A stretch of 54,875 bases of DNA from a virus (lineage: Duplodnaviria; Caudoviricetes). Positions 18,050 through 39,222 of this stretch are shown here, piece after piece. A program made the translations under genes and the position numbers. Below the pieces are notes generated by a model. It searched no databases and had not been told where the DNA came from. It saw only the letters and a program-made list of their open reading frames with translations. Position 1 is the stretch's first letter. Every line of letters begins with the position of its first letter. The stretch is from IMG/VR virus record IMGVR_UViG_3300009537_000013, positions 1 through 54,875 of that record. One strand, given 5' to 3'.

Positions 18050-18190
18050 ATGAAGCTCCTCTGCCGCATCCTCGGGCACAAGCCGAAGCGCCGCGTGTTC
18101 CCCTACCTCCAGGGACTCACGAGCGATGATGTCGCCTCCTGGACGGAATGCGGGCGCTGCGGCCGGACGCTCGATTCTCCGTTCAGCTAG
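18050..18190 (+). CDS. Small Zn-finger-like protein (DUF1660-like)
   Basis: MKLLCRILGHK...CGRCG. GAGGGG SD. Confidence 0.6.
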   Translation: MKLLCRILGHKPKRRVFPYLQGLTSDDVASWTECGRCGRTLDSPFS

Positions 18191-18828
18191 TCGCGCGTCC
18201 AGTCGATCTCGCGGGCATCTCCGGCCACGAAGCAGACAGCCTGCCGGTTACGATCCCCGCGCCGCTGCCCGATCAGCGACGGAACATCGTCCGGATGATC
18301 CACAAGCGAAGGAACTGTGGCATAGATATCTGTGTTCGTCGCCCGCGCGTACTCGCCCACGATGTGATCGTCCGCCTTCTTCCGCTCAGGCAGATAGCCA
18401 CGGCTCGGGGCCCACTCCAGCATCCGCCACACGTGCTCGACGGGCCACACGAGCGCCACGACGGGAACCCACTCCTGACGATTCAGAAGCGCCCACGGGC
18501 GATCCTCGGCGCATGACGCCATCTGCGACCGCGCGCCCTTCCGCAGCTGCCTGGAAACGAACAGCGTGAAGAACCGATCCGGGTGAGCGCTGATCGCAGC
18601 AGTCACGGCCTCCAGGAAGTGATCGCAAACGATCGCGTCGTCCTGAATGACGATTCGATGCGTGGCGTCCTTCGGTGTCAGCCCGAGCGCGTGATGATAG
18701 GTGCGCCACGGGTTCCGCATCGCTCCGGGGTCTGGATCCTCCACGATCTCAGCGGGGATCCGGCCGGCCAGTCGCGCGAGCAGGCTGGCCCGAGCAGGGT
18801 GGTGCTGTATCGCGATCGAGATCTTCAC
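18187..18828 (-). CDS. Glycosyltransferase-like protein (GT-A fold)
   Basis: THRIVIQDDA, ADD and PSLVDH motifs. Confidence 0.7.
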   Translation of the reverse strand: MKISIAIQHHPARASLLARLAGRIPAEIVEDPDPGAMRNPWRTYHHALGLTPKDATHRIVIQDDAIVCDHFLEAVTAAISAHPDRFFTLFVSRQLRKGARSQMASCAEDRPWALLNRQEWVPVVALVWPVEHVWRMLEWAPSRGYLPERKKADDHIVGEYARATNTDIYATVPSLVDHPDDVPSLIGQRRGDRNRQAVCFVAGDAREIDWTRD

Positions 18829-19136
18829 TCATCTTCGAGCAATTCGATCTCGGCAAGCACCGTCGCATGGGCATCCTCGATGATGACCTGAGCATGCTTC
18901 GCAACCCTGGCCTGACCGCGTGCCTCGGCATCGTTCGCCGTGCCGAAATGGGTAGCCGCTAGCTTGCGGTTCACGTCGTGCTGGTAATACTCGGCTTCAA
19001 GCTGCACAAGACGCTGCTCCAGGATCTGCCTTCTCTGGCTGTCATCGAGACGACGATACGTCAAACCAGAAGGCTCGACCTCGGGTGCCTCGACCTCGAT
19101 GATCTCTTCTGGTTCTCCACGCAACCTTGGGGCCAT
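18825..19136 (-). CDS. Hypothetical helical protein
   Basis: GGGAG SD, coupled between the two GT genes. Confidence 0.65.
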   Translation of the reverse strand: MAPRLRGEPEEIIEVEAPEVEPSGLTYRRLDDSQRRQILEQRLVQLEAEYYQHDVNRKLAATHFGTANDAEARGQARVAKHAQVIIEDAHATVLAEIELLEDE

Positions 19137-19150
19137 GAACTCTCGCTCCC

Positions 19151-19978
19151 TTATTTCTCGTTGAACAGGACGTCATCATGCGCGACAGCTCGAATGATGT
19201 TAGCTGCTGTAGACAACGGCTCGTGTCGCCACGGCCTAGCCTTCCAGGCTGCTAGCAGGCCGTCTATGTTCTTGGCAAGAGCGGCGGCGCGATAGTCTGC
19301 GTACCATGCCTCTTCTTCCCAGCCGCCCATGCTGGCCCGTCGCGCATACATCTCTATGGCCTCGTCCGTGCGTCCAAGGCCCGCCAGAGCCTGGGCCGTG
19401 TAGAACACAGCCCTGGTGTCACCCGACTCCACACCCTCAGCGAGAAGCTCGATGTCGCGCTCATGCTTCGTCGCACGGTTCGCGCCGTCTGCGTGATGGT
19501 AAACCGACAGCCCGAGAAGAGGTCTCTGCTTCCTGCCCTTCCCATCGAGATACTCGTGCGTCAGCCCGACCCACTCCCAGTCCAGCCCGCCGCGAACCAT
19601 GATCGGCACCCGGTAGCTCACACTCGAATCCGAGACCTCTACCTGCCACGCATCCGTATCGGGATCTGGGTCTGTCGCGAGCCACTTCCGCAGATCGGGA
19701 TGGAAGCTCACTGTCATGTCTGAGTGGAGCCAGAGAAGCCAGTCAGCTGAGTCCTGTGCCTCCGCCATCAGTTCCGTGAGGTTCGCGCCGCAGTTGCGCC
19801 ACGGACGCTCAATCAGTTGGCCCGGCAGGCAGGAGAACTCGCTTTCCACGATCTCGCGTGTGCTGTCCTCGCTGCCGGTATCCATCACTGTCCACGAGTC
19901 GATCAGCGGGATCACGGATTCCGCGAGCCTCGGGATCGATTCATGCTCGTTCTTCACCATTGCGACCAGTCCGATCAT
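19151..19978 (-). CDS. GT2 glycosyltransferase with a C-terminal TPR region
   Basis: AMVKNE..IPRL.ES, MDTGSEDST, W.G.THEY and R.VFY.AQ...A...Y..R...GGWEEE motifs. Confidence 0.88.
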   Translation of the reverse strand: MIGLVAMVKNEHESIPRLAESVIPLIDSWTVMDTGSEDSTREIVESEFSCLPGQLIERPWRNCGANLTELMAEAQDSADWLLWLHSDMTVSFHPDLRKWLATDPDPDTDAWQVEVSDSSVSYRVPIMVRGGLDWEWVGLTHEYLDGKGRKQRPLLGLSVYHHADGANRATKHERDIELLAEGVESGDTRAVFYTAQALAGLGRTDEAIEMYARRASMGGWEEEAWYADYRAAALAKNIDGLLAAWKARPWRHEPLSTAANIIRAVAHDDVLFNEK

Positions 19979-20115
19979 GCCAGTCCATTCCTCGTTTTCA
20001 TGTTCGCCAGGGCTAGGGTGTTGAGGATCTTGATAGAGGCACGAGCTAGAGCGTTCACAGTCTTGATGCTTGAAGCGGTAGCCTGTTCCGCGTTTCCCCA
20101 ATAGATGTGCGACAT
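19975..20115 (-). CDS. 46-aa repeat peptide missed by the ORF track
   Basis: MSHIYWGNAEQATASSIKTVNALARASIKILNTLALANMKTRNGLA. Three 11-aa repeats, exact gap fill and an ATGA overlap. Confidence 0.65.
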   Translation of the reverse strand: MSHIYWGNAEQATASSIKTVNALARASIKILNTLALANMKTRNGLA

Positions 20116-20121
20116 GGCTTC

Positions 20122-21624: not shown

Positions 21625-21626
21625 AT

Positions 21627-24860
<3,234 letters not shown>

Positions 24861-26987
24861 CTAGCCCCCCGGGAGATAACCCTGCTTGCGAAGCCGCTCC
24901 AGCAGATTCAGAGATTGCGACGTATCCGGTTCCTTCACGAGATCCGGAGCAGCAGACATCACCTGATCCCACTCCTCCGAAGTGAACTTCTCTCCGGAGA
25001 TCGGCTGATCCTGCCAGTGCCCATGATCTCTCATGTAATCCACCTGTAGCCCCACTTCGCGCTGAACCTTCGGACTCATGCTCAGCATCGGCCGCAGATC
25101 CTTGCCCACGAGATCCCCGAGGCTGATCGTGATATTCACGTCCTGCGGCTCCGGCTCGACAGCCACCGATTGTGCCGGGGCAGCCCGCATCGAGCGGAAC
25201 CGCTTCGCCTGCTCAGTGAGCGGCTCCTTTGCCAAGCTGAGAAGCTCTTCTGCGCCGATCGCGCGAGCGCCGAGAACGCGGAGCTTCTGATCGAACTCCT
25301 GCTCCGACAAGGGCCCCTCGATCGCTTCCTCCGAGAAGCCAGCGATCAGAGCGGTCACTTCTTCCTCCGCGCCGGCTGCCGCGATAGCTCGCTGAATCGG
25401 AAAGCCGGGAACGGGAACGCTGAGCACGCCGACAAGCTCCAGCTGCTTCGTCCCGTCCGATCTTCGGACTGCGCGCCAATCTCCGGAAACGCTGTTCGCT
25501 CGGAGATCGCGGATCTGCTCGGGAGTCGCGTCAGACTTCAGGGCTCCGGCCATGTAGGGCCCGAACTCGTCCTCTCCCACCTGGACGTAGGCCACGACTG
25601 TGCCCGTATCGTCATAGTGCGCTGTGGCTGCCTCGCGAGCCGCTGTGAGCGGAGCGTGGCCCGTCGCAGCCGTGATCTTCCCCACCCGGATCGGAGACTC
25701 GTTCTCTGCGTCGATCACGCCGGTATTGAAGAAGTCATATGTGATTCCGCGAGGGGCCAGCACGCAGCGTCCCTGGATCCCCGTGTGGCACTGATCCCAG
25801 AGCGCCACATGCCCGAACACGCGGCCATCCTCCGTGACAGTGATCGGCGTCGGCTCTTTCAGCTGCGGATCATCGAACCATTCAGCCGGAGGATGAAGCG
25901 GGGCCACGGGGCTCGCCGCCAGTACCGCATCTCCCGTTTCATCCTCCGACAGCTGAGGATGCTCTAGCTCCACTTCCAAGAACTCTGCGATCGACGCGCT
26001 CATAGCATCCTCCACGTTCAGGATCAGCGCCGCGAGATGTCTGCGCGCCTGCGCGCGATCATCGTGGCACTTCACCACTTCCCCAGTCGTGGTTTTCACC
26101 ACGCACTGCTTACCCTCTCTCTCGCGAATCGCGAATGGCACATTCGGAAGAATGCCATCCCCTGCGGCTGTCAGAGCCTCAAACGGATCCAGCCCCGCGC
26201 TGTTCGCCAGCGACGGCTGCGCCTCGTCGCCATAGATGATCGAGCAGCGACAGTTGATCGTAAGCGCGCTCCCACCAGACGGATCCCCCGGGAACATCAT
26301 CGACGTTCCTCCGACATTGAACGGCTGCATCGTCGGAACCGTCTGCTTATTCGCGGCCACGTGCTCGGGTCTCACGCGATGATCGCCGGCAGTGATCCAC
26401 GTCTTGAACTGCGGTCTCTCCTGCTCGGGAAGCACGCTCGCAGAAGCAAGAGAGGAGCCGTTCGAGATCGCGATAAGATCTGTGCGTGCCAGCATCCGCG
26501 CTTGCCACGGAGCGATCGAGCGCATCTCTTCGAGGATCAGCTTCGCTGTGTTCGGCACACTCAGCCCCTCCGCCTGAGACTGAAGGATCACACGACGGAT
26601 CGCGTCCCTAGAGCCCTCCACAAGCCGCTCCGCCTGGATTCCCGCCTGCGACTCCACTAACTCCTCCAGCATCGGCAGAAGCCTGCGCTGAAGCTGCCCG
26701 CCCTCGATCACTGCGCCGATCATGCGGGCCATCCTGCGTCTCGTCGCCCGCGTCGTGGACGAACTAGAAGCCGCCACGGCCTCCGCGTGAAGAACCTCAT
26801 CGATCGACGGCTGCGGATGATCGTCGCCGGCCGCAGCACGGATCGACGCCTTCTCGACATACGCGCTCGCGGCGCGCTTCCCCGCCCGCCCGATAACTCG
26901 TTCGTACTGTCGAATCAGACGCGGCTCCAGAGCTAGCGCCTGGATCTGACCCTCGCGGATCGCGGCCTGAAACTCAGCCCCGGCCAT
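24861..26987 (-). CDS. MuF-like head morphogenesis protein fused to capsid maturation protease
   Basis: MuF motifs KTWIT.GD.RVRPEH and PGDP..INCRC. Protease region GRVFGHVALW..CH, GHA and SGDWR. Confidence 0.88.
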   Translation of the reverse strand: MAGAEFQAAIREGQIQALALEPRLIRQYERVIGRAGKRAASAYVEKASIRAAAGDDHPQPSIDEVLHAEAVAASSSSTTRATRRRMARMIGAVIEGGQLQRRLLPMLEELVESQAGIQAERLVEGSRDAIRRVILQSQAEGLSVPNTAKLILEEMRSIAPWQARMLARTDLIAISNGSSLASASVLPEQERPQFKTWITAGDHRVRPEHVAANKQTVPTMQPFNVGGTSMMFPGDPSGGSALTINCRCSIIYGDEAQPSLANSAGLDPFEALTAAGDGILPNVPFAIREREGKQCVVKTTTGEVVKCHDDRAQARRHLAALILNVEDAMSASIAEFLEVELEHPQLSEDETGDAVLAASPVAPLHPPAEWFDDPQLKEPTPITVTEDGRVFGHVALWDQCHTGIQGRCVLAPRGITYDFFNTGVIDAENESPIRVGKITAATGHAPLTAAREAATAHYDDTGTVVAYVQVGEDEFGPYMAGALKSDATPEQIRDLRANSVSGDWRAVRRSDGTKQLELVGVLSVPVPGFPIQRAIAAAGAEEEVTALIAGFSEEAIEGPLSEQEFDQKLRVLGARAIGAEELLSLAKEPLTEQAKRFRSMRAAPAQSVAVEPEPQDVNITISLGDLVGKDLRPMLSMSPKVQREVGLQVDYMRDHGHWQDQPISGEKFTSEEWDQVMSAAPDLVKEPDTSQSLNLLERLRKQGYLPGG

Positions 26988-28812
26988 TCAGCTTCGCTGC
27001 CTGCACATCGAAGCCGGCGGGAAGCAGAGAAGGAGCTTCCTCGAACAGCGTTTTCAGAGCGTGACGCTCAATGATATCGCCAAGCCTGCCCGCAGCAGCA
27101 GGCGCATAACCCAGACCGCGAGCATAAGATCGGAAGCTATCCGCACCGCCTTCCACAGACACGACGGGGGCGCTCTGCTGCCCCACCATAGAAGCGACCA
27201 GCGCATTCGCCACCCCGTCTATCAGCGCGTCCTCCTTCTTCCCCTTCAGCTTCGAGCGGATCCTGGAGCCGGCCAGTTCGCGGCAGCGAATCGTCGCCAT
27301 CTGAGCCGCTCCGATCAGCTGACCCGACACAGCGAGTGGAGCATCCTCGTCCTCCAGGCGCTCTTCGCTCGGCGGAGTCTCCGCAACCTCAGCCGCGTTG
27401 TCCGCCTCGGGCTCAGATTCCTCCTCCTCCACTTCTCCGTCCTCGCCGAGAAGTTCTGGACTGCGCAACTTGATCGCCAGCCACTCTGCGTGCTCCTCAT
27501 CGTCTGGAGCGTCATCGTCCGTGAAGCCAGTGACTTCGCGGAGTTTCGCGTTCGAGAGGGCCCCGCGATCGTGAACGTCCTTCGCGTCCTTCGCTCTGTC
27601 AGGATGATTCACTACATCGGCAGCGTCATAGCCGATGTGGAGATCTTCCCAGTCTGCGATCCCTGCTTCCTTCGCTGCCGGCCGCAGATACGCAGTCGTG
27701 AAATCGTCCACCATCTGCTGCGCGATCGGCTGGAGATGCGCCGTCCACGTCTGATCGTCAATCTGCCAAGCAGTCCAGTGGTTCGCATCAGACAGCCCCA
27801 GCAGAATCTCGGGCGGAAGATCGAGCCCCGTCGCGATCCGCTTCACAAGCTCGTCGCGAAGCTCTCGCTCCGGATAAGACTCCTGCGGATCGTAGAGCTT
27901 CAGATGATCCAGAGCCTTCAGCGACTCCGCGTCTCCCTGCACCACGATCGGCACGACCGAAGCCGCTGTTCCTGGATCCTTAATCGCGTTCACCATCGTC
28001 GTAGTGAGCGCGTCCACGAACGGGTCTCGCTCGGGATCCTCGTCTCCCTGACCTTCCGGCGATCCGAAGCTGATCTCTGTCGGGATCTTCAGGATCCCAG
28101 CGCCGGACGCACGGGACTTCGCGCGAGCGCCGACAGCAAGCCTGAGCAGAACGAGATCCTCGAACATGCCGAGCACGCCGCGCATCGGCGAATCCGCCCA
28201 CATCGAATACTCCGGATGCCTGCGCCACATGCGCCACACACGCGTCTCGCCCGTCTCATCGATCGCCTCGAACGCAGCATTCGGGGCTCTCGACAGATCC
28301 TCCCGTGTCAGCCCTGGAGCGCGGAGCCGCCAGAAGCGGGCACCGCTGCCAGTCTCTTCGAGCTTCAGTTCGGACGAGGAAAGGAACTCCCAGATCTCAG
28401 CATCGTCCTGATTCGAGACTGTCAGGTAGCCCTCGCCGGCCAGGAACATCAGCCGTCCGTAGCTCGCCTGAAGCTGCGACCGGCCTCCGTTCGTATCCCT
28501 AACTCGATCCCAGATCTGAACCGCCTCATCGTTCGGATCCTCGATCTCCTCCAGCTGGCCCTGCTCGCCCCTTCGGCCGGCGTACAGCCTGAGCTTCGCA
28601 AGCGCGCGAGCGTAGAACTGTGCTGCGTACCAGCACTCGCCGACCGTGTTGTAGTAGCCGAACGAGATCTGCTGCCACTGCTGATCGATCCGGCGGAGCT
28701 TCCCGACTTCGCTTCGATCTGTGATCTCCCTCGCGGCAGCCGTGATCGCTGTTCGCGGAGGAGCGTAGACCATCGCCCTCTGTTTGGGCGCTCGGCGTGA
28801 TCCCCTCGCCAC
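26974..28812 (-). CDS. Portal protein
   Basis: 612 aa, upstream of MuF. R.W..HP...ADSP, KSR..GAGIL..P.E and GLDLPPEILLG..ANHW.AW motifs. Confidence 0.9.
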   Translation of the reverse strand: MARGSRRAPKQRAMVYAPPRTAITAAAREITDRSEVGKLRRIDQQWQQISFGYYNTVGECWYAAQFYARALAKLRLYAGRRGEQGQLEEIEDPNDEAVQIWDRVRDTNGGRSQLQASYGRLMFLAGEGYLTVSNQDDAEIWEFLSSSELKLEETGSGARFWRLRAPGLTREDLSRAPNAAFEAIDETGETRVWRMWRRHPEYSMWADSPMRGVLGMFEDLVLLRLAVGARAKSRASGAGILKIPTEISFGSPEGQGDEDPERDPFVDALTTTMVNAIKDPGTAASVVPIVVQGDAESLKALDHLKLYDPQESYPERELRDELVKRIATGLDLPPEILLGLSDANHWTAWQIDDQTWTAHLQPIAQQMVDDFTTAYLRPAAKEAGIADWEDLHIGYDAADVVNHPDRAKDAKDVHDRGALSNAKLREVTGFTDDDAPDDEEHAEWLAIKLRSPELLGEDGEVEEEESEPEADNAAEVAETPPSEERLEDEDAPLAVSGQLIGAAQMATIRCRELAGSRIRSKLKGKKEDALIDGVANALVASMVGQQSAPVVSVEGGADSFRSYARGLGYAPAAAGRLGDIIERHALKTLFEEAPSLLPAGFDVQAAKLNGRG

Positions 28813-29303: not shown

Positions 29304-29342
29304 GCCGGAAACGGCATCAGGGGCCTCGGAAACGGGGCCCCT
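29304..29342. terminator. Two GAAA-tetraloop hairpins between convergent genes
   Basis: GCCG-GAAA-CGGC and AGGGGCCTCG-GAAA-CGGGGCCCCT. Confidence 0.6.
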
Positions 29343-29346
29343 TCCG

Positions 29347-29661
29347 CTAGTCCCAGTTCGAGGCGATCAGCCCCACGACGGCAGAAAGCGCGAACGGCAG
29401 GCACGCCCACAGCGTAGGCACGGGCCAGATCAGCCATGCCAGAAACACTGCGACCGCCACCCAGAACCCGAGACACCACGCGCAGTGCAACCACTCATCG
29501 AACGCCCGACGATAGAGCGTCTCATCCTCCTCGAACCGATCGCGGCGCGTCAGCCTGTCGCGCAGACGATCGAACACAACATCTGCGCCGATGATTCGCC
29601 ACAGCCTGAAGCTCGCCAGCGACAGAATCACGAACTCGAACCAGAGAGGAAGATCTGTCAC
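29347..29661 (-). CDS. DUF1360-like membrane protein
   Basis: LASFRL.R...D..F..LR, L.C.WC.GFWV and hydrophobic segments. Confidence 0.75.
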   Translation of the reverse strand: MTDLPLWFEFVILSLASFRLWRIIGADVVFDRLRDRLTRRDRFEEDETLYRRAFDEWLHCAWCLGFWVAVAVFLAWLIWPVPTLWACLPFALSAVVGLIASNWD

Positions 29662-29844: not shown

Positions 29845-30672
29845 TTAGACACCGGGGCACGGATCCATGATGAGCGACGTATCCTCACGCGGACGCGCAC
29901 TGAAGAACCACTCTCGATAGTGGCCCTTCACGATCTCGTCGCCGGCCAGTTGCTTCGACAGATCGCCGATGTCATCGAGCGACTCGCCTCGATAAGCGTT
30001 CGTCTGCCACTGCCGCCAGTGCTGCCCAGTCGTCTCTGGGAACTCCGTGTGCGCATAGGCGACAATGCCGTTCCTGATCTTCCTCACGTACTGATCCGGG
30101 GAGCGCCATGAGAAGTGACGGATCACGAGCCCGGGAACGGACAGCGCGGTTCCGCTCGTCCGCGCCGCATGGTTGCCCATCTCGATCCGGAGATCCGGGC
30201 GGATGCGACAGCAGACCTTCGCGCCGTCGCCGGCCTCACGCTTCCTCCAGCGGATGCGCTTGGCCGGGTTCGCCTCCGCGCTCGGATCCTCGCTCGTCGG
30301 AATGTGATGAAACATCTGGGCAGTCACGATCTGGGCATCAGGAGAGAGCCCATCGAGCCTGTCCCTGATCGGCCTCATGTCGGGCGAATACCAGAACTCG
30401 TCGGCGTCACACGGCAACGCCCACTGATAGCCGAGATCGCCGGCCATCAGCGCCAGCCGCGTCGTCTTAGCTGACTGCTCATAGCCGATCTCGGGATCAT
30501 CGATCACAGTCACCTGCTCGCGAGGAACATGGTTCGTCAGGATCCGACGAGTCCGGTCGCGGCTCATGTTGTCCGCGACGATCACGTGATCCACCTGCGT
30601 CAGCAGATAGCGGATCGTGTGCTCGATGATGTCCTCTTCATCTTTCACCAACATGACCGCTGCCACGCTCAT
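29845..30672 (-). CDS. GT2-family glycosyltransferase
   Basis: MLVKDEEDII, ADNMSRDRT, CDADEFW, GNH and HFSWRS motifs. Confidence 0.88.
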   Translation of the reverse strand: MSVAAVMLVKDEEDIIEHTIRYLLTQVDHVIVADNMSRDRTRRILTNHVPREQVTVIDDPEIGYEQSAKTTRLALMAGDLGYQWALPCDADEFWYSPDMRPIRDRLDGLSPDAQIVTAQMFHHIPTSEDPSAEANPAKRIRWRKREAGDGAKVCCRIRPDLRIEMGNHAARTSGTALSVPGLVIRHFSWRSPDQYVRKIRNGIVAYAHTEFPETTGQHWRQWQTNAYRGESLDDIGDLSKQLAGDEIVKGHYREWFFSARPREDTSLIMDPCPGV

Positions 30673-30869
30673 CCGTTCACTCCGAACTCTTCTTTCAGTG
30701 ACTTGATCTCTGCTCGCAGCTTCATAATCTCGATATCCGCAACCACCCCTAACTCGCACACAGGACAGCCGCCATTCTGCGGCACGAACACGAGCCCACA
30801 TTTTTCGCATTCATGGCAATTCCGTTGGCCTACCATCACGATCGGCGGGGGCCACCAAAAGACGCTCAT
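30669..30869 (-). CDS. Small Zn-ribbon protein
   Basis: CEKC..CPVC. ATGA overlaps at both ends. Confidence 0.6.
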   Translation of the reverse strand: MSVFWWPPPIVMVGQRNCHECEKCGLVFVPQNGGCPVCELGVVADIEIMKLRAEIKSLKEEFGVNG

Positions 30870-31171
30870 GCGGCATCCTTTGGCGGCTCGCGAAACGGAA
30901 ACTGTGCTGGCCTCGGAAGATCATCGGGGCCCGCGATCGTGACGCCAGTCAGGTTTTGCACAAGCATCCTTGAACCCTCATCGCTCAGCGGAAACGCGAG
31001 CATCAGCGGGCCCATCAGAAGAACCTTCTGCTTCGTCCCATCAGGAGCCGGATGCTCCTGCACCTGCAACTGGCAGCCGAACAGTGGCACCACGGGAAGA
31101 TTCATTCCCTGCGGCTGCGCTCCGCCGTTCCCGCCCATCGGCGGAACGCCAGGTGGCTTCTTCTTACCCAT
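30866..31171 (-). CDS. Hypothetical protein
   Basis: GGAGG SD, coupled within the operon. Confidence 0.6.
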   Translation of the reverse strand: MGKKKPPGVPPMGGNGGAQPQGMNLPVVPLFGCQLQVQEHPAPDGTKQKVLLMGPLMLAFPLSDEGSRMLVQNLTGVTIAGPDDLPRPAQFPFREPPKDAA

Positions 31172-31871
31172 AAGAACCTCCGATCTGTTTCTCCCACTCT
31201 AATCGCTCCAGGATGATCTGTCTCATCTCGGTCGCGTTCGCCTTCGCCGCCAGGTAGCGCTCGCCGAGAACCTGATTCGCACCGTGAGTCGGCGACTCCT
31301 CCCGCTCCGCACGGTCTGTCGGATGCCACAAGTGATAAATGTCGCCACGGACTCGCTCGAACCCTCCGAACATCGCGCAGCACGAACTCCAGAACGCGAG
31401 ATCCTCCCAGCCCCATCCCTGGAAGCGCTCATCGAAGCCGTGAACCGTTTCCCAGATCTCGCGTGTCACGACGAGCACTCCGCTGAACGTATTCGGATGC
31501 CTCGTCTCCGCCGACTCGATCTCTCCGCCGGCCATGATCCGGTCGCTCTCCTCCTCGCTGAGAAGCGTCAGGTGATCGTGCGCGAACACGAGCTTTCTCT
31601 TTCCGTGCGCCCGTCCGATCGCCTCGTGGATCTGCCCGAAGTGGTGAGCGAAGTGTTCGCCTCCCACGATCAGGGCACCGTCCCACGGGCCAGCCCTTCG
31701 CGCTGCGTCGTTCGTAGCCGCCGCAAGACTGAACGGGCCCGGGCCCTTATGGGCTCCCTCGAAGATCTCCCATGACGGAGCCTGCTCCTGCCAGCGGGCT
31801 CGACACCACGCCCAGATCTCATCCCGTCGTCCTCTGTCCGGCCGGCGTCCCACGAGAATGACGTTCCTCAT
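31164..31871 (-). CDS. Glycosyltransferase with a GT7-like (galactosyltransferase) C-terminal motif
   Basis: PFSLAAA.N, GFDERFQGWGWED and YHLWH motifs. Confidence 0.85.
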   Translation of the reverse strand: MRNVILVGRRPDRGRRDEIWAWCRARWQEQAPSWEIFEGAHKGPGPFSLAAATNDAARRAGPWDGALIVGGEHFAHHFGQIHEAIGRAHGKRKLVFAHDHLTLLSEEESDRIMAGGEIESAETRHPNTFSGVLVVTREIWETVHGFDERFQGWGWEDLAFWSSCCAMFGGFERVRGDIYHLWHPTDRAEREESPTHGANQVLGERYLAAKANATEMRQIILERLEWEKQIGGSYG

Positions 31872-32374
31872 AGTCGCTTGCCCTCGCGAACCAGACGTGG
31901 ATCTGCGGGCGGAGGATAATGCATGACCGGGAAACCCCGATAGTCATACTCCCGGGCCTTCATTCCTCTGACGGTCGCCCGCGCGCTTACGTCGTCAGCG
32001 ACGATCGCCCCGGCTCCGATCACAGAGTCCTGAGCGATCGTGACGCCCCCGAGGATCACGGCTCCGCTGCCGATCGACACGCGATCCCCGATACGTGTCT
32101 CTAGCATCCCATCGGGCCCATAGCCCTCGATCGAGGGTCGCTTGTCATTCACGAACATCACGCCGTGACCGATGAAGCACTGCGCGCCAATCGTCACCCC
32201 AGAGCAGACGAACGTGTGAGACTGGATTCGCGTCTCCTCCCCAATGATGACGCCGGCCTGGATCTCGCAGAACGGGCCCACGAACACGAAGGGGCCCAAC
32301 ACGCACTGATAGAGATTCGAGGGATCCCTGATCTGATGCCCCTCCCCTATGAACCTCACATCGTCAACTGCCAT
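31868..32374 (-). CDS. Left-handed beta-helix sugar N-acetyltransferase (WbpD-like)
   Basis: NLY.C..G..VGPFCEIQ..IQSHTFVC.GVTI..FIGHGVMF.ND..P hexapeptide repeats. Confidence 0.88.
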   Translation of the reverse strand: MAVDDVRFIGEGHQIRDPSNLYQCVLGPFVFVGPFCEIQAGVIIGEETRIQSHTFVCSGVTIGAQCFIGHGVMFVNDKRPSIEGYGPDGMLETRIGDRVSIGSGAVILGGVTIAQDSVIGAGAIVADDVSARATVRGMKAREYDYRGFPVMHYPPPADPRLVREGKRL

Positions 32375-33444
32375 GAGCCCTCCTTCTGAAACCACTCCAC
32401 GTAGCGCCGAATGCCCTGATCGATCACTGTCGGCGCGAGTCCGTCTTGCGGAAGGTTCAATGTCCGCTCTAAGAGAGTCGGGCTCATCATCACGTTACGC
32501 ACGTCATCTGCGCGCCACGTTCCCTCCATCTCCATCTTCCAGTCCGAGTGTTGAATCCCGAGCATGGGAGCGAGCAGCTTTACGAGCATTCGCACCGGGA
32601 ACGAGCGACCGGAGCAGCAGTTGTAGACACCGGCCGGCGCATCTGCGGCTGCGACTGTCGCCCTAGCAGCGTCCTCCACGTAAAGGAAATCGCGAAGCTG
32701 CCCTCCGTCCTCGTGAACCGTCGCCGTTCCCCATTCCGTAAGCTCTCGCGCGAAGATCGAACAGATCCCCGTGTAATCGTTCACGAGTGACTGCCACGGG
32801 CCATACGTCAGCGAGTAGCGAAGCGCGATCGGCTTCACGTTCCACTCCGGCAGGAGCTTCATCACGAACCGTTCCGCTGCGAGCTTCGACTGTCCGTACA
32901 CGCTTCCGGGAGAGCAGTGATGCTCCTCGAACGAAATGGCCTGGACTGCGAACTTGCCGCACAGCGAGCAGCGGTTCTCCCATCTTCCGTTCTCCAGATC
33001 GAGCACGCTTCTCGGCGGCGCGTACTGATCGCCGTGATCCTCGCACACGATCCGCCCGTTCCCGTACACACTGCCGCTAGACGCGAACACGAGCGTCTCC
33101 ACGCTGGAGTCCTTCACGGCATCGATCACGTTCAGCGTTCCGCCGATGATCGTATCGATCGTCTTTCGCGGGCTGGGGTTGAAGCCTCCGTAGGCTGCGA
33201 GATGAAACACCGTGTCGGGCTCGAACGCCCTGATCGCTTCCTCCAGCGTATCGGCATCGCAGATGTCGCCGATCATCAGCAGATATCTCTCGCGTAGCTC
33301 GGGGTCATGCCAGCGGCCCCCATCGGGCCCGTGCGTATCGGGCTCCAGATTGTCGAAGATCGATACTGCGTGGGCGGTCTCTAGAAGCTGATGCGCAACC
33401 CACGAGCCGATCATTCCCGCTCCGCCTATCACGAGCGCTCTCAT
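32356..33444 (-). CDS. NAD-dependent NDP-sugar epimerase/dehydratase (WbiB-like, with a Cys insertion)
   Basis: GGAGMIG, FHLAA, YGQSK and EDG.Q.RDF motifs, plus a C..HG...WE..C..C insertion. Confidence 0.88.
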   Translation of the reverse strand: MRALVIGGAGMIGSWVAHQLLETAHAVSIFDNLEPDTHGPDGGRWHDPELRERYLLMIGDICDADTLEEAIRAFEPDTVFHLAAYGGFNPSPRKTIDTIIGGTLNVIDAVKDSSVETLVFASSGSVYGNGRIVCEDHGDQYAPPRSVLDLENGRWENRCSLCGKFAVQAISFEEHHCSPGSVYGQSKLAAERFVMKLLPEWNVKPIALRYSLTYGPWQSLVNDYTGICSIFARELTEWGTATVHEDGGQLRDFLYVEDAARATVAAADAPAGVYNCCSGRSFPVRMLVKLLAPMLGIQHSDWKMEMEGTWRADDVRNVMMSPTLLERTLNLPQDGLAPTVIDQGIRRYVEWFQKEGSWQLTM

Positions 33445-33635
33445 CTGCATCCCCCTTCGATCTCTTCGATTTTCTTCTCCAGTTCCTCGATGTGATCCTC
33501 AAGCCTTGTAAGCGCCTCTCTGGGCTTAAAGCTCTCATCGCCATAAACCATCGTCTCGGGAAGGTTGGGTCTAATAATCACCACGTCATCACGCCACGTT
33601 CCAGTCCGAACGAACCAGCTACGAACGTCCCTCAT
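33441..33635 (-). CDS. Hypothetical protein
   Basis: TGATG start overlap and a coiled-coil C-terminus. Confidence 0.5.
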   Translation of the reverse strand: MRDVRSWFVRTGTWRDDVVIIRPNLPETMVYGDESFKPREALTRLEDHIEELEKKIEEIEGGCR

Positions 33636-33964
33636 CAGCACTTGTCTCCGGTCTGCGTGTACCTGACTATGGATCCGTCTACCCAGAACGCGACATGCTC
33701 CCCGTCGTGCGCTTCTGGCCGCAGGCAGAGCAGCCCAGTATGAATGCACCGCTCGAAGCACACCTGCCCCTCGAACGAGTCGATCTCCTTCATGTCCTCG
33801 ATGTCTCGCGCAGCGTTCTTCTCCTGAGTCTCCAGCACCGCGAGGAGGCGCTTCCAGGAAACGATCTGATGGCTCGCGTGCTGGATCTTCCCCTCTACCG
33901 CGCGGATGCGTGCCTGCGCCTGCTCGTGCTCCCTGACGAGCTTCGCGTACTGATTGAGGTTCAC
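33635..33964 (-). CDS. Hypothetical coiled-coil protein with a Cys/His motif
   Basis: GTGA overlap. C.....C....H.G.H pattern. Confidence 0.6.
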   Translation of the reverse strand: MNLNQYAKLVREHEQAQARIRAVEGKIQHASHQIVSWKRLLAVLETQEKNAARDIEDMKEIDSFEGQVCFERCIHTGLLCLRPEAHDGEHVAFWVDGSIVRYTQTGDKC

Positions 33965-34947
33965 AGATCTACAGGAGCGCCGTCGTTCGCGAGCGACTGA
34001 CTAGCCGCCTCGCACAGCGCCACCACTTCTATCGCTAGCTGTCCACCTATCACGGGAGTCTTGTGCTCGATGCAATCCCTGAAGTGGTCACACTCTACTC
34101 GCAGAGCCTCTCGCGTGTCTAGAGCCGGCGCGTACACGTCGCCCTTCCTGTAAGCCACCATGAGCCCGTGAGCGCGTTCCCTAGAGCGTTCCAGGCTCAC
34201 CCCGGCGTCATAGATCCTGACCTTCTCAGACGGCTCCAGATCGTCATACACGGCCATGCGCTCGTCTCCGACTATGAGCGTCTGGCGGAGCTTCACCGGA
34301 GACAGCCACGAGACCGCGATGTGCGCCTGAGTGCCCGCCGGCCACGAGCAAGAGATCCAGGCTGCGTTCGCCTGCCCGCTGCCGGCGAAGTCGCCGCCCA
34401 GCGCCCTGATCCGTGTCGGCTTCGAGGCGAGCGCGTAGAGCATGATCGAGAAGTCGTGTGGCGCGAGATCCCAGATCACATCGCAGTCCTGCTGGAACAG
34501 TCCGAGATTCACGCGCGTCGATGAGAAGTAGTGGATTCTGCCGAGATCCGTTGCCGCTAGGTTCCTGACGGCCCCGGTGAAGAGGAACGTGTGATCCGTG
34601 AGGAGCGTCAATCCTGCGTCCTCCGCGATCGCTGTGAGTCTCGATGCCTGCCGTGAATCCTGCGCGAGCGGCTTCGTGACGAGCACGTGCTTTCCGTCCA
34701 TGAGCGCGTCCAGCGCGAGATCGTAGTGCGTGGACAGCGGAGTGGCGATCGCGACGGCATCGAGATCGCTGGCTCGCGTGACCTCCCTCTCGTTCTGCGT
34801 GATCCAGACCTGGGGATGCCGGCGCTTCGCGAGCGCAAGACGATCGGAGTCCCTGTCTGCGATGTGCGCGAGAGAGAACCCTGCTTCGATCAGGTTGCGC
34901 GCGAGGTTCGGGCCCCAGTAGCCGTATCCGATCAGCCCGACTCGCAT
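33961..34947 (-). CDS. Gfo/Idh/MocA oxidoreductase (sugar-nucleotide dehydrogenase type)
   Basis: GYGYWGPNLARN, IATP..H, GKHVLV.KP and WDLAPHD motifs. Confidence 0.9.
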   Translation of the reverse strand: MRVGLIGYGYWGPNLARNLIEAGFSLAHIADRDSDRLALAKRRHPQVWITQNEREVTRASDLDAVAIATPLSTHYDLALDALMDGKHVLVTKPLAQDSRQASRLTAIAEDAGLTLLTDHTFLFTGAVRNLAATDLGRIHYFSSTRVNLGLFQQDCDVIWDLAPHDFSIMLYALASKPTRIRALGGDFAGSGQANAAWISCSWPAGTQAHIAVSWLSPVKLRQTLIVGDERMAVYDDLEPSEKVRIYDAGVSLERSRERAHGLMVAYRKGDVYAPALDTREALRVECDHFRDCIEHKTPVIGGQLAIEVVALCEAASQSLANDGAPVDL

Positions 34948-35552
34948 CAGTAGCCGTGCGACCCTGGAGCGCGCTCTACGCCGATATGAGCCGCCCACGG
35001 CTCTCCCCACCCCCACAGCCCAAACACAGCGTCAGGATAGCGCTGGATGATCCTGGGGCCTATCTCCGTCTCGCATCCCGGCTGCGGATCCCACGGAAAC
35101 TCGCGTGCAAGCTCCGTCCGGAACAGCGCCGGATTCGTCGCCCAGTTCCGTGTCGTGGCGATCCACGGACGCTGCCACGAGCCGCGCCGCTCATACAGTC
35201 CCGGCATCTGCGGAATGTAGCCGCCCCACTCGATCTCGAATCCCCACGGGCAGCGGACGAGCGCAACCTGCTTCACGCTCGGCTGCATCTTCATCAGCGC
35301 CACGAAGTGAGTGAGATCGACCGGCCGGAGGATCGCGAAGTCCTCCTCCAGATGGAATACCCATTCCTCCTCACGACCGGCGGCTGTCTCCCAGCACTTC
35401 GCATGAGCAGCGCACATGCCAAGCTTCGAGTGGCGATCGTCATAGATGTACGTGAACGCCGGCTTCGGCTCCACGAACCTGTCGAAGCTGTCCAGAGCGC
35501 GCTCTAGGTACTCGTCCCTGCCGTTCGCCAGCACCGTGAGAACGTAGTTCAC
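34947..35552 (-). CDS. Glycosyltransferase-like protein (paralogue A)
   Basis: GR.EYLER.L.S, FHLEEDF, TNP.L and HIG motifs. Confidence 0.75.
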   Translation of the reverse strand: MNYVLTVLANGRDEYLERALDSFDRFVEPKPAFTYIYDDRHSKLGMCAAHAKCWETAAGREEEWVFHLEEDFAILRPVDLTHFVALMKMQPSVKQVALVRCPWGFEIEWGGYIPQMPGLYERRGSWQRPWIATTRNWATNPALFRTELAREFPWDPQPGCETEIGPRIIQRYPDAVFGLWGWGEPWAAHIGVERAPGSHGY

Positions 35553-35767
35553 TGCACGCGGCGCAGTTCGATCCGGTAACAGTCCGCGAGGTTCACGAGC
35601 TTCCGGCCGTCCTGCGACGGGAACCGCTCCCACGCCCTGCCACGATTAAGCCGCTTCTGCGTGTTCACGAAATACTTGTGCATGGCGGGATACGGGCCCT
35701 TCCGTAGCGAGATCTCCGGCTGGCCCTCACACGCCGCAATCACTTCCCACGTGCCATCAGTGCTCAT
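35549..35767 (-). CDS. Hypothetical protein
   Basis: Fills the gap and has a GTGA overlap. Confidence 0.5.
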   Translation of the reverse strand: MSTDGTWEVIAACEGQPEISLRKGPYPAMHKYFVNTQKRLNRGRAWERFPSQDGRKLVNLADCYRIELRRVQ

Positions 35768-35959
35768 CGATCACAGCCTACTCTTCACATCGACAGGCAC
35801 AAGGGATCGCCTTCCCCAGTTCCAGACGAAGCTCCTCGCGATCATCATCGAAGTCCTGCACGCTCTTCTCCAGCGCCTCAACGCGCTCCACGAGCTTCTC
35901 GCACGCGCTCGTTAGCGTTCCCACGATCAGCGTCAGATCCTCGCAGTCCCGACAGCGCA

Positions 35960-36616
35960 TCAGTAGCCCGTTCCCGTCCGGACGCCGATGTGCCGAACCC
36001 ACGGGGCCCCGTCGCCCCACGCGCCGAACGTGTAGCCGCGAGCGAGCAGATCGATTCCGAGCCGGCCCTCACACTCGGAGCCGTAGTCGGGCCACGGATT
36101 CGCACGCATGAAGTCCCGGCTCATCAGGCTCGGGTTCGTGGTGAAGTACGCCTGATGTTCGAGCCACGGATGCCGTCCCTCGATCCTCGGTCGGTACTGC
36201 CCGTGACGCGACTCGAACAGCCCGCCGGCCTCCTTCTCCTGCTCGTTCACCGCGTCCCGCATCAGCGCCATCTGCGCCACGTCAGGCTCCTCATCGAGCA
36301 CATCAGCGAGATCCCTGAGATCGACCCTGCGGAGGATCTCGAAGTCGTGCTCTAGCCAGAAGATCCACTCCTCGGAAGAATGCGAAGCCTGGATCCAACC
36401 GGCGCGTGTCGCTTGGCAGAAGCCGTTCAGGCGGGGCCCGAGCGGAAGTATCTGGTACGTATCTCCGAGATAGACGCTCGGAATGTAAGGCCCGTCCACC
36501 ACGAGCAGCACGTGGGAAGGCTGTGGGACGACGTGCTCGGCGACACTATGAAGTGTGCGTTCGAGGAAGCTGTGATCCTCGCCGTGCGTGAGAACGATCA
36601 GCCGATAGCGCATCAT
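35960..36616 (-). CDS. Glycosyltransferase-like protein (paralogue B)
   Basis: FLERTL.S, FWLEHDF, TNPSL and HIG motifs. Confidence 0.75.
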   Translation of the reverse strand: MMRYRLIVLTHGEDHSFLERTLHSVAEHVVPQPSHVLLVVDGPYIPSVYLGDTYQILPLGPRLNGFCQATRAGWIQASHSSEEWIFWLEHDFEILRRVDLRDLADVLDEEPDVAQMALMRDAVNEQEKEAGGLFESRHGQYRPRIEGRHPWLEHQAYFTTNPSLMSRDFMRANPWPDYGSECEGRLGIDLLARGYTFGAWGDGAPWVRHIGVRTGTGY

Positions 36617-36621
36617 TCACT

Positions 36622-37281
36622 TTACTCGGGCGAGCGGCGAGCGAACACAGCCTGCGGATGCTTCTCGAACCGCTCGACGGCAAACCCGGACTCCTGAAGC
36701 AGCGCGATCGCGTCATCCACTTCGAGCCCGTTCATCTCCTTGTGAAGTTCCGCCAGCACGAACCTGACCCTCGGGGCCCAGTCGTGCGCATCCTCGAACA
36801 CGGCCCGCTCCGCCCCCTCGATATCGAGCTTCACGAAGTCACACACCGCCTCGGGCCCGAACGCCGAATCGATCAGGGTGCGCAGCCGGCGAGACGGAAC
36901 CTGCACGTCTCCGCCCTCCTGAATCCGGTACGCCCATTCGCCATCGAGCGACGAGTATGTGCGGAAGCCGTCATCGCCGGCGCACGCTGCCCAGATGACG
37001 CGGCCGGCGAAGTTCTGCTCCGCCCACTCGGCGTTCAGCGCGTCCATCTCGACAGCCACGATGTCAGCCTCCGGCCACATGGCCGCATAGTGCGCAGCAG
37101 TGAGCCCGATGTTCGCGCCCACATCGAGCACGCGCAGAGGGACGGGCATCGTCTCGGGGGGAACGTGGTATAGCCCCACGAACGTGTCGCTCCACACCGC
37201 CTGATCCGTCGTGTGCGGACGCAGCCTCACTGACCGCCCGGGCCCGAGCGCGTGGGTCTGCTGCTCGATCGCGCTAGCCAT
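36622..37281 (-). CDS. FkbM-family methyltransferase
   Basis: VLDVGANIG, AVE and FVKLDIEGAE..ELH motifs. Confidence 0.9.
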   Translation of the reverse strand: MASAIEQQTHALGPGRSVRLRPHTTDQAVWSDTFVGLYHVPPETMPVPLRVLDVGANIGLTAAHYAAMWPEADIVAVEMDALNAEWAEQNFAGRVIWAACAGDDGFRTYSSLDGEWAYRIQEGGDVQVPSRRLRTLIDSAFGPEAVCDFVKLDIEGAERAVFEDAHDWAPRVRFVLAELHKEMNGLEVDDAIALLQESGFAVERFEKHPQAVFARRSPE

Positions 37282-37699
37282 CTGGCTCGTGCTGCTTCAT
37301 GTGCTCGCCGAGATCCTCGAAGTGCTCTCCGCACTCAGGACAGTCGCCAGCGTGAACGGCTGCGAGCTTCCTCTTCTGCTTCGTCACGACTCCGCGCGTG
37401 GCGCTCAGGCTCGCCTTCGTCTGATCGAGGTTCGCCGTGAGGAACGCCGTGCGATCACGCTCGCGCTCCAACTTCAGCCGAAGAGATTCCTCCCTCGTCG
37501 GCCCCCTGTAGCTAAAGCTGTGCCCGTTCGGGCAGTAGAACGACTTCCCATCGCGTCTGCGCTGCTCGAAGTACGTCTCGACCACAGCGAAGATCACATC
37601 GCAGCGCGAGCACTGATGGAACTCCATATCCGATAGGCCGGTGAACGTCCACGTCCCGAGGTTCTCGGTGCCTCGCCTCTCTGTTCTGACTGTGCTCAT
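37274..37699 (-). CDS. Zn-finger / coiled-coil protein
   Basis: CSRC, FYCPNGH and CPEC..HM..H motifs. Confidence 0.7.
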   Translation of the reverse strand: MSTVRTERRGTENLGTWTFTGLSDMEFHQCSRCDVIFAVVETYFEQRRRDGKSFYCPNGHSFSYRGPTREESLRLKLERERDRTAFLTANLDQTKASLSATRGVVTKQKRKLAAVHAGDCPECGEHFEDLGEHMKQHEPDG

Positions 37700-38352
37700 G
37701 CCGGAATCATCGCCTCTCTGTGCTCTCGCACGATCGCTCTGTACGCATCCTCCAGGATGCTCCGATCCTGACTGTTCCTCCCCCCTGCCCGTGTCCACGC
37801 ACGATAGACCGCCAGCGGAACGTCCGCCACTGTCGCGCCGGCGCGAACACAGCGAAGGAATAACTCCCAGTCCTCATACGCCGGCAGATCCCGAAAGCCG
37901 CCGACATCGAGGAACAGTTCCCTCGGGACGAGCGTTCCGATCACGCAGTGATTCAGCTTGTCCATCGGCTGATGCCTGTTCGGAAGCTCCGGCCGGCTCT
38001 CCTCCCCGTCAGCGCTCACGTACTGGATTGACGGAGCAAGCAGAAGCGGACGGGGCCCATTCTCGTGGTAGAACGCAGCGGCAGCCGCAGCCATGTAGTC
38101 CACATAGCCGGGAGCCAGTTCGTCATCTGCGTCGAGGAAGCACAGCCACGACGCGCGCACCTGCGAAGCAGCGTAGTTTCGCGCATCGGCGATCGAGCCG
38201 CCGGCCTCATGCCAAACGTACACCTGGACGCGCTCATTCCAGATGCCGTCACGTCCCTGTCCGATCGTGGACGGGAACGCGCGAGACCAGGCTAGCTCCT
38301 CCCATTCCGAGGAGCCATGCGTGGCAATCAGGATTGCAACTGCTGGCACCAT
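37696..38352 (-). CDS. GT2-family glycosyltransferase
   Basis: ARN, FLDADDEL.PGY and VGGF..YEDW.L.LR motifs. Confidence 0.88.
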   Translation of the reverse strand: MVPAVAILIATHGSSEWEELAWSRAFPSTIGQGRDGIWNERVQVYVWHEAGGSIADARNYAASQVRASWLCFLDADDELAPGYVDYMAAAAAAFYHENGPRPLLLAPSIQYVSADGEESRPELPNRHQPMDKLNHCVIGTLVPRELFLDVGGFRDLPAYEDWELFLRCVRAGATVADVPLAVYRAWTRAGGRNSQDRSILEDAYRAIVREHREAMIPA

Positions 38353-38520
38353 TGACGCGAAGTGTGCTCTAACCCCCGGATGACGGATCGGCGGAAAACC
38401 TCCCGCGTTTCCGAAGCTTCTCCATTCGTTCATCCCACTCAGCTTTCGCCCCCGCAACGTTCGAGTAGAAGTCCGGCCTGACGCACGGGCAGAAATGCGA
38501 ACTGTGAGACCGGCAGAACC

Positions 38521-39222
38521 TCAGCGCGGTCTCTTCGGCGTGCCTCTCTGCCTGTCCGTGTGCCATAGCCTCTGCCTCGTGTTATATAGCCGCCTGTCAT
38601 CCTCGAACGCGACCAGAGCCGTCCGGTACGTATCGTCCATCTCGCCCTTACCCCATAGCGGATGCAGATGCTCCACGACGGACTCCGGCTCGTGAACGAA
38701 CTCGCCTCGCGCCTTCGCCGTCTCGATGAACTCGTTATCGACCCAGTTATGGGAATAGCCCTCATGCAAAACCACGTCCGGATCATCGATCGATCCCAGT
38801 TGCGCATAACTGCGATGAAACAGAGAGTGCGTGGAATGCCTGCCGGCCGCTACCTGGCGGTTCCCGAGATCGTTCGTGCCCACGACGCGCCTTCCCTCGC
38901 AGCAGGCTACGCCCACGGCGCAGTCAGCCCAGCCATGATGGAAGTCCAGGTCTGACGAGGCGAAGAAGATCCAGGGAGCCATCGTGTTCCGGATGCCGGC
39001 GTTCATCTTCCTCGCGTAATCGCCTGGCTCCCACGGCTCCGGCAGCACGAGCACGTCGTCCGGCGTGTGGCTCAGCGCTTCCAGAACGGGCCCATCGCTC
39101 TCAGTCACGATGAACAGCGGTCTCAGTTCGAGAAGCCGCTGGCTCGCCGCGAGGTTCTCGATGATCTCCGGGACGCGCTCTGCACGCCCGAGCATCGGGA
39201 TCAAAACATCTACGTCCACCAT
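38521..39222 (-). CDS. GT2-like glycosyltransferase
   Basis: VLIP..GR, YA.K.N.G, HEGY.HN..D.E and VEHLHP motifs. Confidence 0.8.
   Translation of the reverse strand: MVDVDVLIPMLGRAERVPEIIENLAASQRLLELRPLFIVTESDGPVLEALSHTPDDVLVLPEPWEPGDYARKMNAGIRNTMAPWIFFASSDLDFHHGWADCAVGVACCEGRRVVGTNDLGNRQVAAGRHSTHSLFHRSYAQLGSIDDPDVVLHEGYSHNWVDNEFIETAKARGEFVHEPESVVEHLHPLWGKGEMDDTYRTALVAFEDDRRLYNTRQRLWHTDRQRGTPKRPR

Follow-up and report, generated by a model that had tools for sequence, protein, structure and literature searches.

The window analysed here is the whole of the IMG/VR virus record IMGVR_UViG_3300009537_000013, a linear sequence of 54,875 bases (G+C content of about 62%) whose completeness is estimated at 68% by CheckV. 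Nearly all of its long open reading frames (ORFs) lie on the minus strand. Between positions 18187 and 39222 of this strand, inside the head module, twelve genes encode eight GT-A-type glycosyltransferases (GTs, named GTa to GTh) and four sugar-tailoring enzymes, all co-oriented with the late genes. Six of the GT genes are located between terL and the portal gene, and the two others (GTg and GTh) between the gene of a MuF-protease fusion and the capsid gene. The terL stop and the portal start are 14.4 kb apart, in line with the distance of about 14 kb given by a preliminary description of this DNA, which had read these genes as a virion glycosylation system and whose positions and orientation for them were all found again.

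The eight GT assignments survive comparison by profile (Pfam or PHROG) or by fold (AlphaFold2, AF2, and Foldseek). Five of these proteins pass the Pfam gathering scores: the GT2 enzymes GTb (37696..38457; Glyco_tranf_2_2, 31 bits, 2e-7, and GT2, 27.5 bits, both over the cut-off) and GTf (29845..30810; Glyco_tranf_2_4, 52 bits, 1e-13), GTc (35960..36616; GT2, 25.3 bits; phrog_3047, 1.5e-7), GTe (31164..31871; Glyco_transf_7C, 38 bits, 1.3e-9) and GTg (19151..20101; GT2, 25.3 bits; phrog_13126, 3.5e-15), a further GT2 enzyme that has a weak TPR-like tail. GTd (34947..35633) has no Pfam match; it is 34% identical to GTc, of which it is a clear paralogue (5e-30), and matches the same PHROG family (phrog_3047, 2.9e-6). 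The weakest by Pfam are GTa (38521..39222), which scores 18.1 bits against GT2, under the cut-off of 23.3 (E 0.0027), and matches PHROG GT families (4e-8 and 2e-5), and the GT25-like GTh (18187..18828), which has no Pfam match and belongs to phrog_854 (4.6e-25).

Sequence searches of the PDB with GTh, GTa and GTe gave matches at chance level only, and folds were predicted instead for two of them. AF2 models of GTa and GTh were built on 13 and 17 aligned natural homologues, respectively. The GTa model (predicted local distance difference test score, pLDDT, of 93.5) has 426 Foldseek matches in the PDB at E<=1e-3, led by AvpGT, SpsA, TarS/TarP and ppGalNAcT. The GTh model (pLDDT 93.1) adopts a GT-A fold, whose PDB neighbours include the mimivirus protein R655, GnT-I, POMGNT1, COLGALT1 (GLT25D1 in the PDB title), C1GalT1, LH3 and the mimivirus protein R699. 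Among viral models, it is closest to gp87 of the Mycobacterium phage Ardmore and to a GT of the Microbacterium phage Hendrix (template modelling score, TM, of 0.73), followed by many giant-virus GT25 proteins. A QDD triad, D154 and H178 are invariant in the GTh family, as expected of a metal-dependent GT-A enzyme. None of the eight GTs has a transmembrane-like segment.

The four tailoring enzymes are equally real, their Pfam or NCBIfam scores (FkbM, SDR epimerase, GFO_IDH_MocA and Hexapep) being far over the cut-offs. They comprise an FkbM-family S-adenosylmethionine methyltransferase (36622..37281; Methyltransf_21, 45 bits, 1.5e-11; TIGR01444, 55.3 bits for a cut-off of 37.7), a Gfo/Idh/MocA NAD-dependent sugar dehydrogenase (33961..35016; PF01408, 7e-19; PDB 3c1a and 7bvj), a GalE-like extended short-chain dehydrogenase/reductase (SDR) of the nucleoside diphosphate (NDP)-sugar epimerase/dehydratase type (32356..33450; PF01370, 2e-40, in two stretches; UDP-glucose 4-epimerases in the PDB) and a left-handed beta-helix (LbH) N-acetyltransferase of the NDP-3-amino-sugar class (31868..32395; Hexapep, 4e-20; NeuD/PglB/VioB, 9e-20). 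The Pfam match of the epimerase is broken in two by an insert of about 40 residues (approximately 135-176) with several Cys and His, which could bind a metal.

Two of these enzymes hint at the sugars involved. The best NCBIfam match of the dehydrogenase is NF040723, UDP-GlcNAc 3-dehydrogenase (1e-31, 111 bits, far under the equivalog cut-off), and the PDB chains nearest to the acetyltransferase are sugar N-acetyltransferases acting on NDP-3-amino sugars (7s43, the WxcM-like 4mzu, 3mqg and QdtC). A dehydrogenase paired with an LbH acetyltransferase represents the classes used by 2,3-diacetamido sugar pathways. The UDP-2,3-diacetamido route employs a WbpB/WlbA dehydrogenase, a WbpE/WlbC aminotransferase and a WbpD/WlbB acetyltransferase. 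The first and last of these classes are present in the window, whereas the DegT aminotransferase of the UDP-2,3-diacetamido-2,3-dideoxy sugar pathway is absent from it, so that the set is incomplete. Because the scores lie far below the equivalog cut-offs, the substrates of the dehydrogenase and acetyltransferase are inferred only. The phage would direct a 3-acetamido sugar, with transamination contributed by the host or encoded in the third of the genome that is missing.

These enzymes are embedded in a late operon of otherwise recognizable order. Transcription would run from a DUF5681 small-terminase-like gene to TerL (43200..44639, minus strand, like all the genes named in this paragraph; Terminase_6N, 3e-14, and Terminase_6C), about 4 kb of small genes and the GT block (39222-29845), followed by a DUF1360 membrane protein (29347..29661; PF07098, 1.4e-10), the portal protein (26974..28812; phrog_776, 5e-100), a MuF head-morphogenesis domain fused to the head maturation protease (24861..26987; Phage_Mu_F, phrog_2468 and phrog_18402) and an unknown protein of 489 aa (g489). 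Next come a collagen-like protein of 587 aa, unknown proteins of 395 aa (g395) and 104 aa (g104), GTg, an unknown protein of 103 aa and GTh. Downstream of GTh are found the major capsid protein (MCP; 15718..17562), which has an acidic N-terminal domain (phrog_777, 4e-71; 40% identity to actinophage capsid proteins by tblastn), a phrog_779 protein, the major tail (tube) protein (14100..14768; phrog_792, 1e-23), an adaptor, the tape measure and Dit. Besides the enzymes, the GT block holds a zinc-finger or endonuclease VII-like protein (37274..37798; phrog_33336, 6e-22; phrog_1035 endonuclease VII, 4e-5) and two small overlapping ORFs without family match (33441..33964).

None of 50,697 cultured phage records contains DNA nearly identical to that of the window, whose portal and capsid proteins share 26-41% identity with proteins of Microbacterium, Arthrobacter, Gordonia, Streptomyces and Mycobacterium phages. 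Because of this similarity, and because further-off portal relatives were found in assemblies of Streptomyces, Rhodococcoides and Actinomycetes, the host is likely actinobacterial. Scans of the window for tRNAs and Rfam families gave no match, and promoters and terminators were fewer than expected from shuffled sequence.

A search of IMG/VR with the single portal protein found no relatives. A portal search at E<=0.001 yielded 350 proteins, the 120 listed having identities of 40-55%, and an alignment of 35 of these proteins led to 80 IMG/VR loci, against which 34 window proteins were compared by tblastn. In the closer relatives, TerL is followed by GTa and a variable cassette, DUF1360 and portal, then by MuF, a variable stretch, GTh, MCP, the phrog_779 protein and the tail tube. 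The region between TerL and DUF1360 is thus a variable island of which these two genes are the left and right borders; in distant relatives, portal directly adjoins TerL. Matches were found to portal in all 80 loci, to MuF in 68, to DUF1360 in 46 and to MCP in 39. Those to the enzymes decrease from GTh (17) and GTa (11; in relatives the first gene after terL) to GTe and GTf (6 each), GTc and GTd (5 each), the epimerase (4), GTb (3) and FkbM (1), with none for the dehydrogenase, the LbH acetyltransferase and GTg. DUF1360 lies directly upstream of portal in all the 46 loci that have it, including loci devoid of GT, and tracks portal rather than the GTs.

Whole-record searches of 34 records, split by portal identity, indicate that the presence of these genes is more than chance. 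PF00535 is matched in all 18 records at a portal identity of at least 36% (2 to 6 matches each, 4 in the window) and in none of the 16 records at 35% or less. In the same way, phrog_854 is matched, always as a single copy, in 16/18 versus 0/16 records; the two misses are G007, which is 59% complete and ends just after MuF, and G027. Where a locus shows both the MuF-protease and the MCP gene, GTh has a homologue between the two in 11 of 15 cases if portal identity is 35% or more, and in none of 22 if it is lower; the estimated gap to the capsid gene is -11 to 1742 bp. In public data, the profile of the GTh family matches 4024 clusters (50% identity) at E<=1e-3, 2374 of them at E<=1e-10, in 1.84 billion representatives. 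Six gp110-like members of 435-716 aa (P0145, P0177, P0197, P0236, P0242 and P0254) show two matched stretches, as tandem or fused proteins.

The content of the island differs from one relative to another. When the islands of 16 relatives were surveyed with Pfam, their 129 plus-strand ORFs of 110 aa or more included GT2 (17 ORFs), GT2_4 (8), Methyltransf_23 (8), PIG-L deacetylases (6), Epimerase (5), FkbM (4), HNH_3 (3), Formyl_trans (2), GNAT (2) and Glyco_transf_7C (2). This mixture indicates that the terL-portal gap is a mosaic glycan-synthesis locus with conserved flanks, the window being one composition among many. Judged by gene content, the trait is a clade-wide variable island and not a peculiarity of the window phage. 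The zinc-finger or endonuclease VII-like gene of the window and the HNH_3 endonucleases of relatives may drive the turnover of the island.

Two of the GTs, and more weakly a third, are related to enzymes of phages known to decorate their own particles. GTh matches Che8 gp110 over its full length (blastp 3.6e-11, 28% identity over 201 aa) and Corndog gp38 (4.4e-9), which both match Glyco_transf_25. GTe matches Corndog gp37 (7e-9) and Che8 gp109 (4e-7). A weaker match, over 82 aa only, links GTb to the N-terminal GT2 domain of Che8 gp108 (2.4e-4). Both a gp110/gp38-like and a gp109/gp37-like GT, as found in Che8/Corndog-type systems, are thus present. According to the available part of PMC12363180, mycobacteriophages glycosylate the proteins of their capsid and tail tube by means of GTs of their own, gp110 and gp38 being the two GTs essential for capsid glycosylation, and in the available part of PMC12619734 the C-termini of the two subunits are given as the site of the glycans. 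O-glycosylation has been attributed to Che8 gp108-110 and Corndog gp35-38 (Freeman et al. 2023, as cited in the available parts of PMC12363180, PMC12619734 and PMC11600133). In Corndog, an O-methyltransferase and three GTs lie between portal and protease, and capsid peptides were poorly recovered (PMC4351075, in its available part).

The window resembles these systems by its homologues of gp110/gp38, of gp109/gp37 and, more weakly, of gp108, by the presence of a sugar methyltransferase, by a tail tube that ends in Ser like their subunits and, as in Corndog, by the location of the genes among head genes. It differs by having eight GTs instead of three, by the addition of an NDP-sugar dehydrogenase, an epimerase and an N-acetyltransferase, by the position of its main block between terL and portal, by the Cys at the C-terminus of its capsid protein and by belonging to an uncultivated phage. 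Its methyltransferase is also of another type. The C-terminal domain of Che8 gp108, Corndog gp35 and pas34 of the Actinoplanes phage phiAsp2 are TylF/Methyltransf_24-type methyltransferases, whereas that of the window is Methyltransf_21/FkbM, without blastp match at 1e-2 to the Che8 and Corndog methyltransferases, and was rejected, at the level of the family, as their counterpart. The best match of GTh in a cultured phage is phiAsp2 pas35 (30.5% identity, 99% coverage). This gene belongs to a trio (pas33-pas35) of a GT, a methyltransferase-domain protein and a GT at the end of the late genes, which differs from the window locus by its three genes and its lack of nucleotide-sugar enzymes.

A more remote likeness exists with the fibril glycosylation of giant viruses (Mimivirus R655 and R699). 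R655 is the best PDB match of GTh (E 5e-6, TM 0.62), but the likeness is at the level of the fold only (9-14% identity), and realm and acceptor differ. What giant viruses and the window phage are proposed to have in common is that virus-made sugars decorate the particle of the virus itself.

The C-termini of the structural proteins bear on the acceptor. The Che8 MCP and tail tube end in ...TGS and ...DGS and the Corndog MCP in ...VGS. In the window, the tail tube (...SITPAS) is the sole structural protein with a Ser at its end. Among GTh-positive records, 9 of 13 tail tubes end in Ser and all 13 have a Ser or Thr within the last three residues (L083, whose match reads as frameshifted, was left out). 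Among GTh-negative complete tail tubes, three open-ended matches being left out, 3/15 end in Ser; two of these three (from L038 and L066) have GTs after the tail tube gene. Since these sequences are related to one another, the comparison can be no more than suggestive. C-terminal Ser as a sharp marker of GTs was weakened when three further GTh-positive records proved to end in T or P, and the signature is a loose one because four GTh-positive tail tubes in all do so. A predicted complex of tail tube and GTh scored 0.00 in two runs without controls, which has no bearing either way.

Some side observations concern the same proteins. The L038 and L066 loci have no GTh upstream of the capsid gene and carry GTa/GTe homologues right after the tail tube gene (approximately 18179-19114 in L038; 19707-20633 and 20669 in L066), and their tail tubes end in GSGS. 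Three virion proteins of the window end in Cys, all encoded on the minus strand: the MCP (...GITC), the phrog_779 protein (14837-15679; ...SGCC) and Dit (7920-8834; ...YAWC). A Ser/Thr/Gly-rich capsid tail with a C-x(12-16)-C motif recurs in many related loci (MCPs of L003-L099), with or without GTh.

The preliminary description had favoured a protein acceptor, in part because it recognized neither a polyprenyl-phosphate transferase nor a base hydroxymethylase, and profile searches of the window and its relatives are likewise negative. Neither Bac_transf nor Glycos_transf_4 (polyprenyl-phosphate transferases), nor Thymidylat_synt (the hydroxymethylase type), is matched in the window or in any of five relatives (four complete, one 84% complete). 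No initiating enzyme of lipid-carrier glycan synthesis was found in the window, flippase families not having been searched for, and no hydroxymethyl- or hydroxy-base enzyme of phage DNA glycosylation in this 68%-complete record. Tyrosine (Phage_integrase) and serine (Resolvase) integrases are absent from all five of the window and its four complete relatives. With no DNA, lipid-carrier or lysogeny enzymes found in these searches, a cytoplasmic protein acceptor is the simplest reading.

Three other acceptors were considered. The enzymes could modify, during infection, an envelope polymer of the host or its cytoplasmic precursor (teichoic-acid-like, arabinogalactan or lipoglycan), which could block superinfection or alter released debris. 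This is unlikely, even though cell-surface glycan loci typically contain enzymes of the GT25, GT2 and NDP-sugar kinds and GTa has a fold like those of TarS, TarP and RmlT, which glycosylate wall teichoic acid without membrane spans. No integrase was found in the window or its four complete relatives, so there is no setting for lysogenic conversion; an initiating polyprenyl-phosphate transferase is missing; the genes lie within the head operon, where the conserved GT adjoins the capsid gene; and the homologous Che8 and Corndog genes are reported, in the parts of the literature available, to act on virions.

Slightly less probable still is a glycan carried by the collagen-like fibre protein (587 aa, 21627..23390, minus strand; Collagen, 1.3e-34; PHROG tail-fibre families) or by another accessory virion protein instead of the tail tube or capsid, comparable to glycosylated collagen-like spore fibres or giant-virus fibrils. 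The Thr-rich collagen repeats of the Bacillus exosporium protein BclA are O-glycosylated. The collagen-like protein of the window has two long GXT-repeat blocks and is encoded in the head module near GTg, and the fold neighbours of GTh include the collagen galactosyltransferase COLGALT1, LH3 and the mimivirus proteins R655 and R699. However, the co-occurrence of collagen fibres with the cluster, a survey of which the preliminary description had proposed, is not seen: collagen-like matches exist in just 5/80 related loci, and those of L007 and L042 are placed differently, either downstream of the gene for the tail tube or upstream of portal. Moreover, GTh and the island are kept in relatives without a nearby collagen gene, and g489, g395, GTg and g104 are almost unique to the window. 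In the collagen-like protein, a globular domain parts the two GXT blocks, and its gene lies between protease and capsid genes though its PHROG matches are tail-fibre families.

That the GTs hypermodify the DNA of the phage, by adding glycans to pyrimidines bearing a hydroxymethyl or hydroxyl group, is very improbable: phage GTs do build diverse glycans on 5hmC (bioRxiv 10.1101/2023.12.21.572611, in its available part) and C5 DNA methylases are encoded by 2/5 of the window and its complete relatives (G011 and G015), but the window and the complete GT-bearing relatives G005 and G010 have none, the thymidylate-synthase-type hydroxymethylase was not found in the window or the five relatives, Tet_JBP is matched in 0/5 of the window and its complete relatives (a weak test because the control matched no control genome) and the GTs lie in the head module, not among replication genes.

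The best explanation, to which we give a probability of about two in three, is that virion proteins are O-glycosylated in the cytoplasm, the likeliest acceptors being the tail tube and capsid proteins and the donors partly phage-made amino sugars. It builds on the gene content, the folds, the homology with Che8 and Corndog, the conservation across the clade and the absence of DNA and lipid-carrier routes. In the scheme that we infer as to acceptor, order of steps and sugars, soluble enzymes would be made in the cytoplasm together with the late proteins, and GTh would put the first sugar on Ser or Thr near the exposed C-termini of virion subunits, its best candidate being the tail tube (...TPAS) and the capsid protein the next. 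The seven remaining GT-A enzymes would lengthen the glycan. The dehydrogenase, the LbH acetyltransferase and the GalE-like epimerase would turn host UDP-HexNAc or UDP-hexose into donors of an unusual kind, with a 3-acetamido-3-deoxy sugar as the probable product and transamination supplied by the host or by the unsequenced part of the genome. FkbM would methylate a sugar; that the glycan is methyl-capped is speculation.

Several points weigh against this explanation. No glycan has been seen on any particle, and the record is only 68% complete. Identities to the Che8 and Corndog proteins are low (23-28%), and the window FkbM belongs to another family than their methyltransferases. The capsid protein of the window ends in ...GITC, not in Ser, and the tail tubes of four GTh-positive relatives end in T or P, within a set of sequences that are phylogenetically non-independent. 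The DegT-type aminotransferase needed for a 3-acetamido sugar route was not found in the window, and the Tet_JBP negative is a weak one. Furthermore, the wall-teichoic-acid enzymes among the fold neighbours of GTa act on host polymers without transmembrane segments, and the solubility of GTs alone is therefore compatible with a host-envelope acceptor as well.

The 395-aa protein (20437-21624, minus strand) has no homologue in the 80 loci, and its G+C content is about 53% compared with 62% in its neighbours. Its BNR/sialidase-like leads are weak (Pfam E of about 0.006; Atlas scores of 0.85-0.90), and it may be a beta-propeller of recent acquisition that binds glycans or acts as a glycosidase. 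The 489-aa protein (23391-24860, minus strand), which belongs to no Pfam or PHROG family and has a G+C content of 53% in 23600-24199, has as its sole homologue in these loci a protein of L003 (72% identity over the matched segment), likewise encoded after MuF. The 624 bp between GTh and the capsid gene contain two opposite-strand ORFs for small Cys-rich, zinc-ribbon-like proteins (17479-18190), the only plus-strand candidates in the late operon. Lastly, a 187-aa protein (39345-39908, minus strand) without Pfam, PHROG or NCBIfam match starts with a signal-like hydrophobic segment, and its C-terminal part resembles, by eye, transglycosylase/Rpf-like domains.

To our knowledge, virion glycosylation by phages has been demonstrated so far only for a small number of mycobacteriophages that use two to four enzymes, and it is discussed mainly with regard to the evasion of antibodies in therapy. 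What appears new compared with this is the set of twelve enzymes, the tailoring of nucleotide sugars, the terL-portal placement, the clade-wide variable island and the conserved GT25-like anchor. No description of such islands was found in the literature searched, most subscription papers and supplements lying outside it. A bacterial parallel exists: O-antigen and capsule clusters likewise combine, as mosaics, GT2/GT25 enzymes with methyltransferases, epimerases, deacetylases and formyltransferases, their content varying between relatives within conserved flanks, and the dehydrogenase and LbH acetyltransferase of the window are of the same classes as in O-antigen clusters with the UDP-2,3-diacetamido route. 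Unlike these clusters, the window has neither an initiating polyprenyl-phosphate transferase nor an aminotransferase, and its locus is part of the head operon of a lytic-type phage.

It can be suggested tentatively, at somewhat less than even odds, that lytic siphoviruses of actinobacteria, forming a large clade without cultivated members, carry a phage counterpart of the O-antigen locus, made of a GT25-like primer next to the capsid gene and a rapidly exchanging terL-portal island. This island would make amino, acetylated, formylated and methylated sugars. With a fixed priming enzyme and a mosaic island, related phages would therefore differ in the 'serotype' glycan coat of their particles. 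Virion glycosylation would in that case be a widespread and diversifying trait of phages in soil and water, beyond a few mycobacteriophages, and would point to selection by something other than mammalian antibodies. The twelve enzymes of the window, the differing island mixes of its relatives and the 4024 clusters of the key GT family all suggest a larger and more varied phenomenon. If the acceptors are virion proteins, these enzymes would be a source of parts for the glyco-engineering of therapeutic phages. Environmental phages would then diversify their surface glycan as bacteria do their O-antigens, and the question would become that of the selecting agent, for example proteases, adsorption, defence systems sensing capsid or tail, or grazers.

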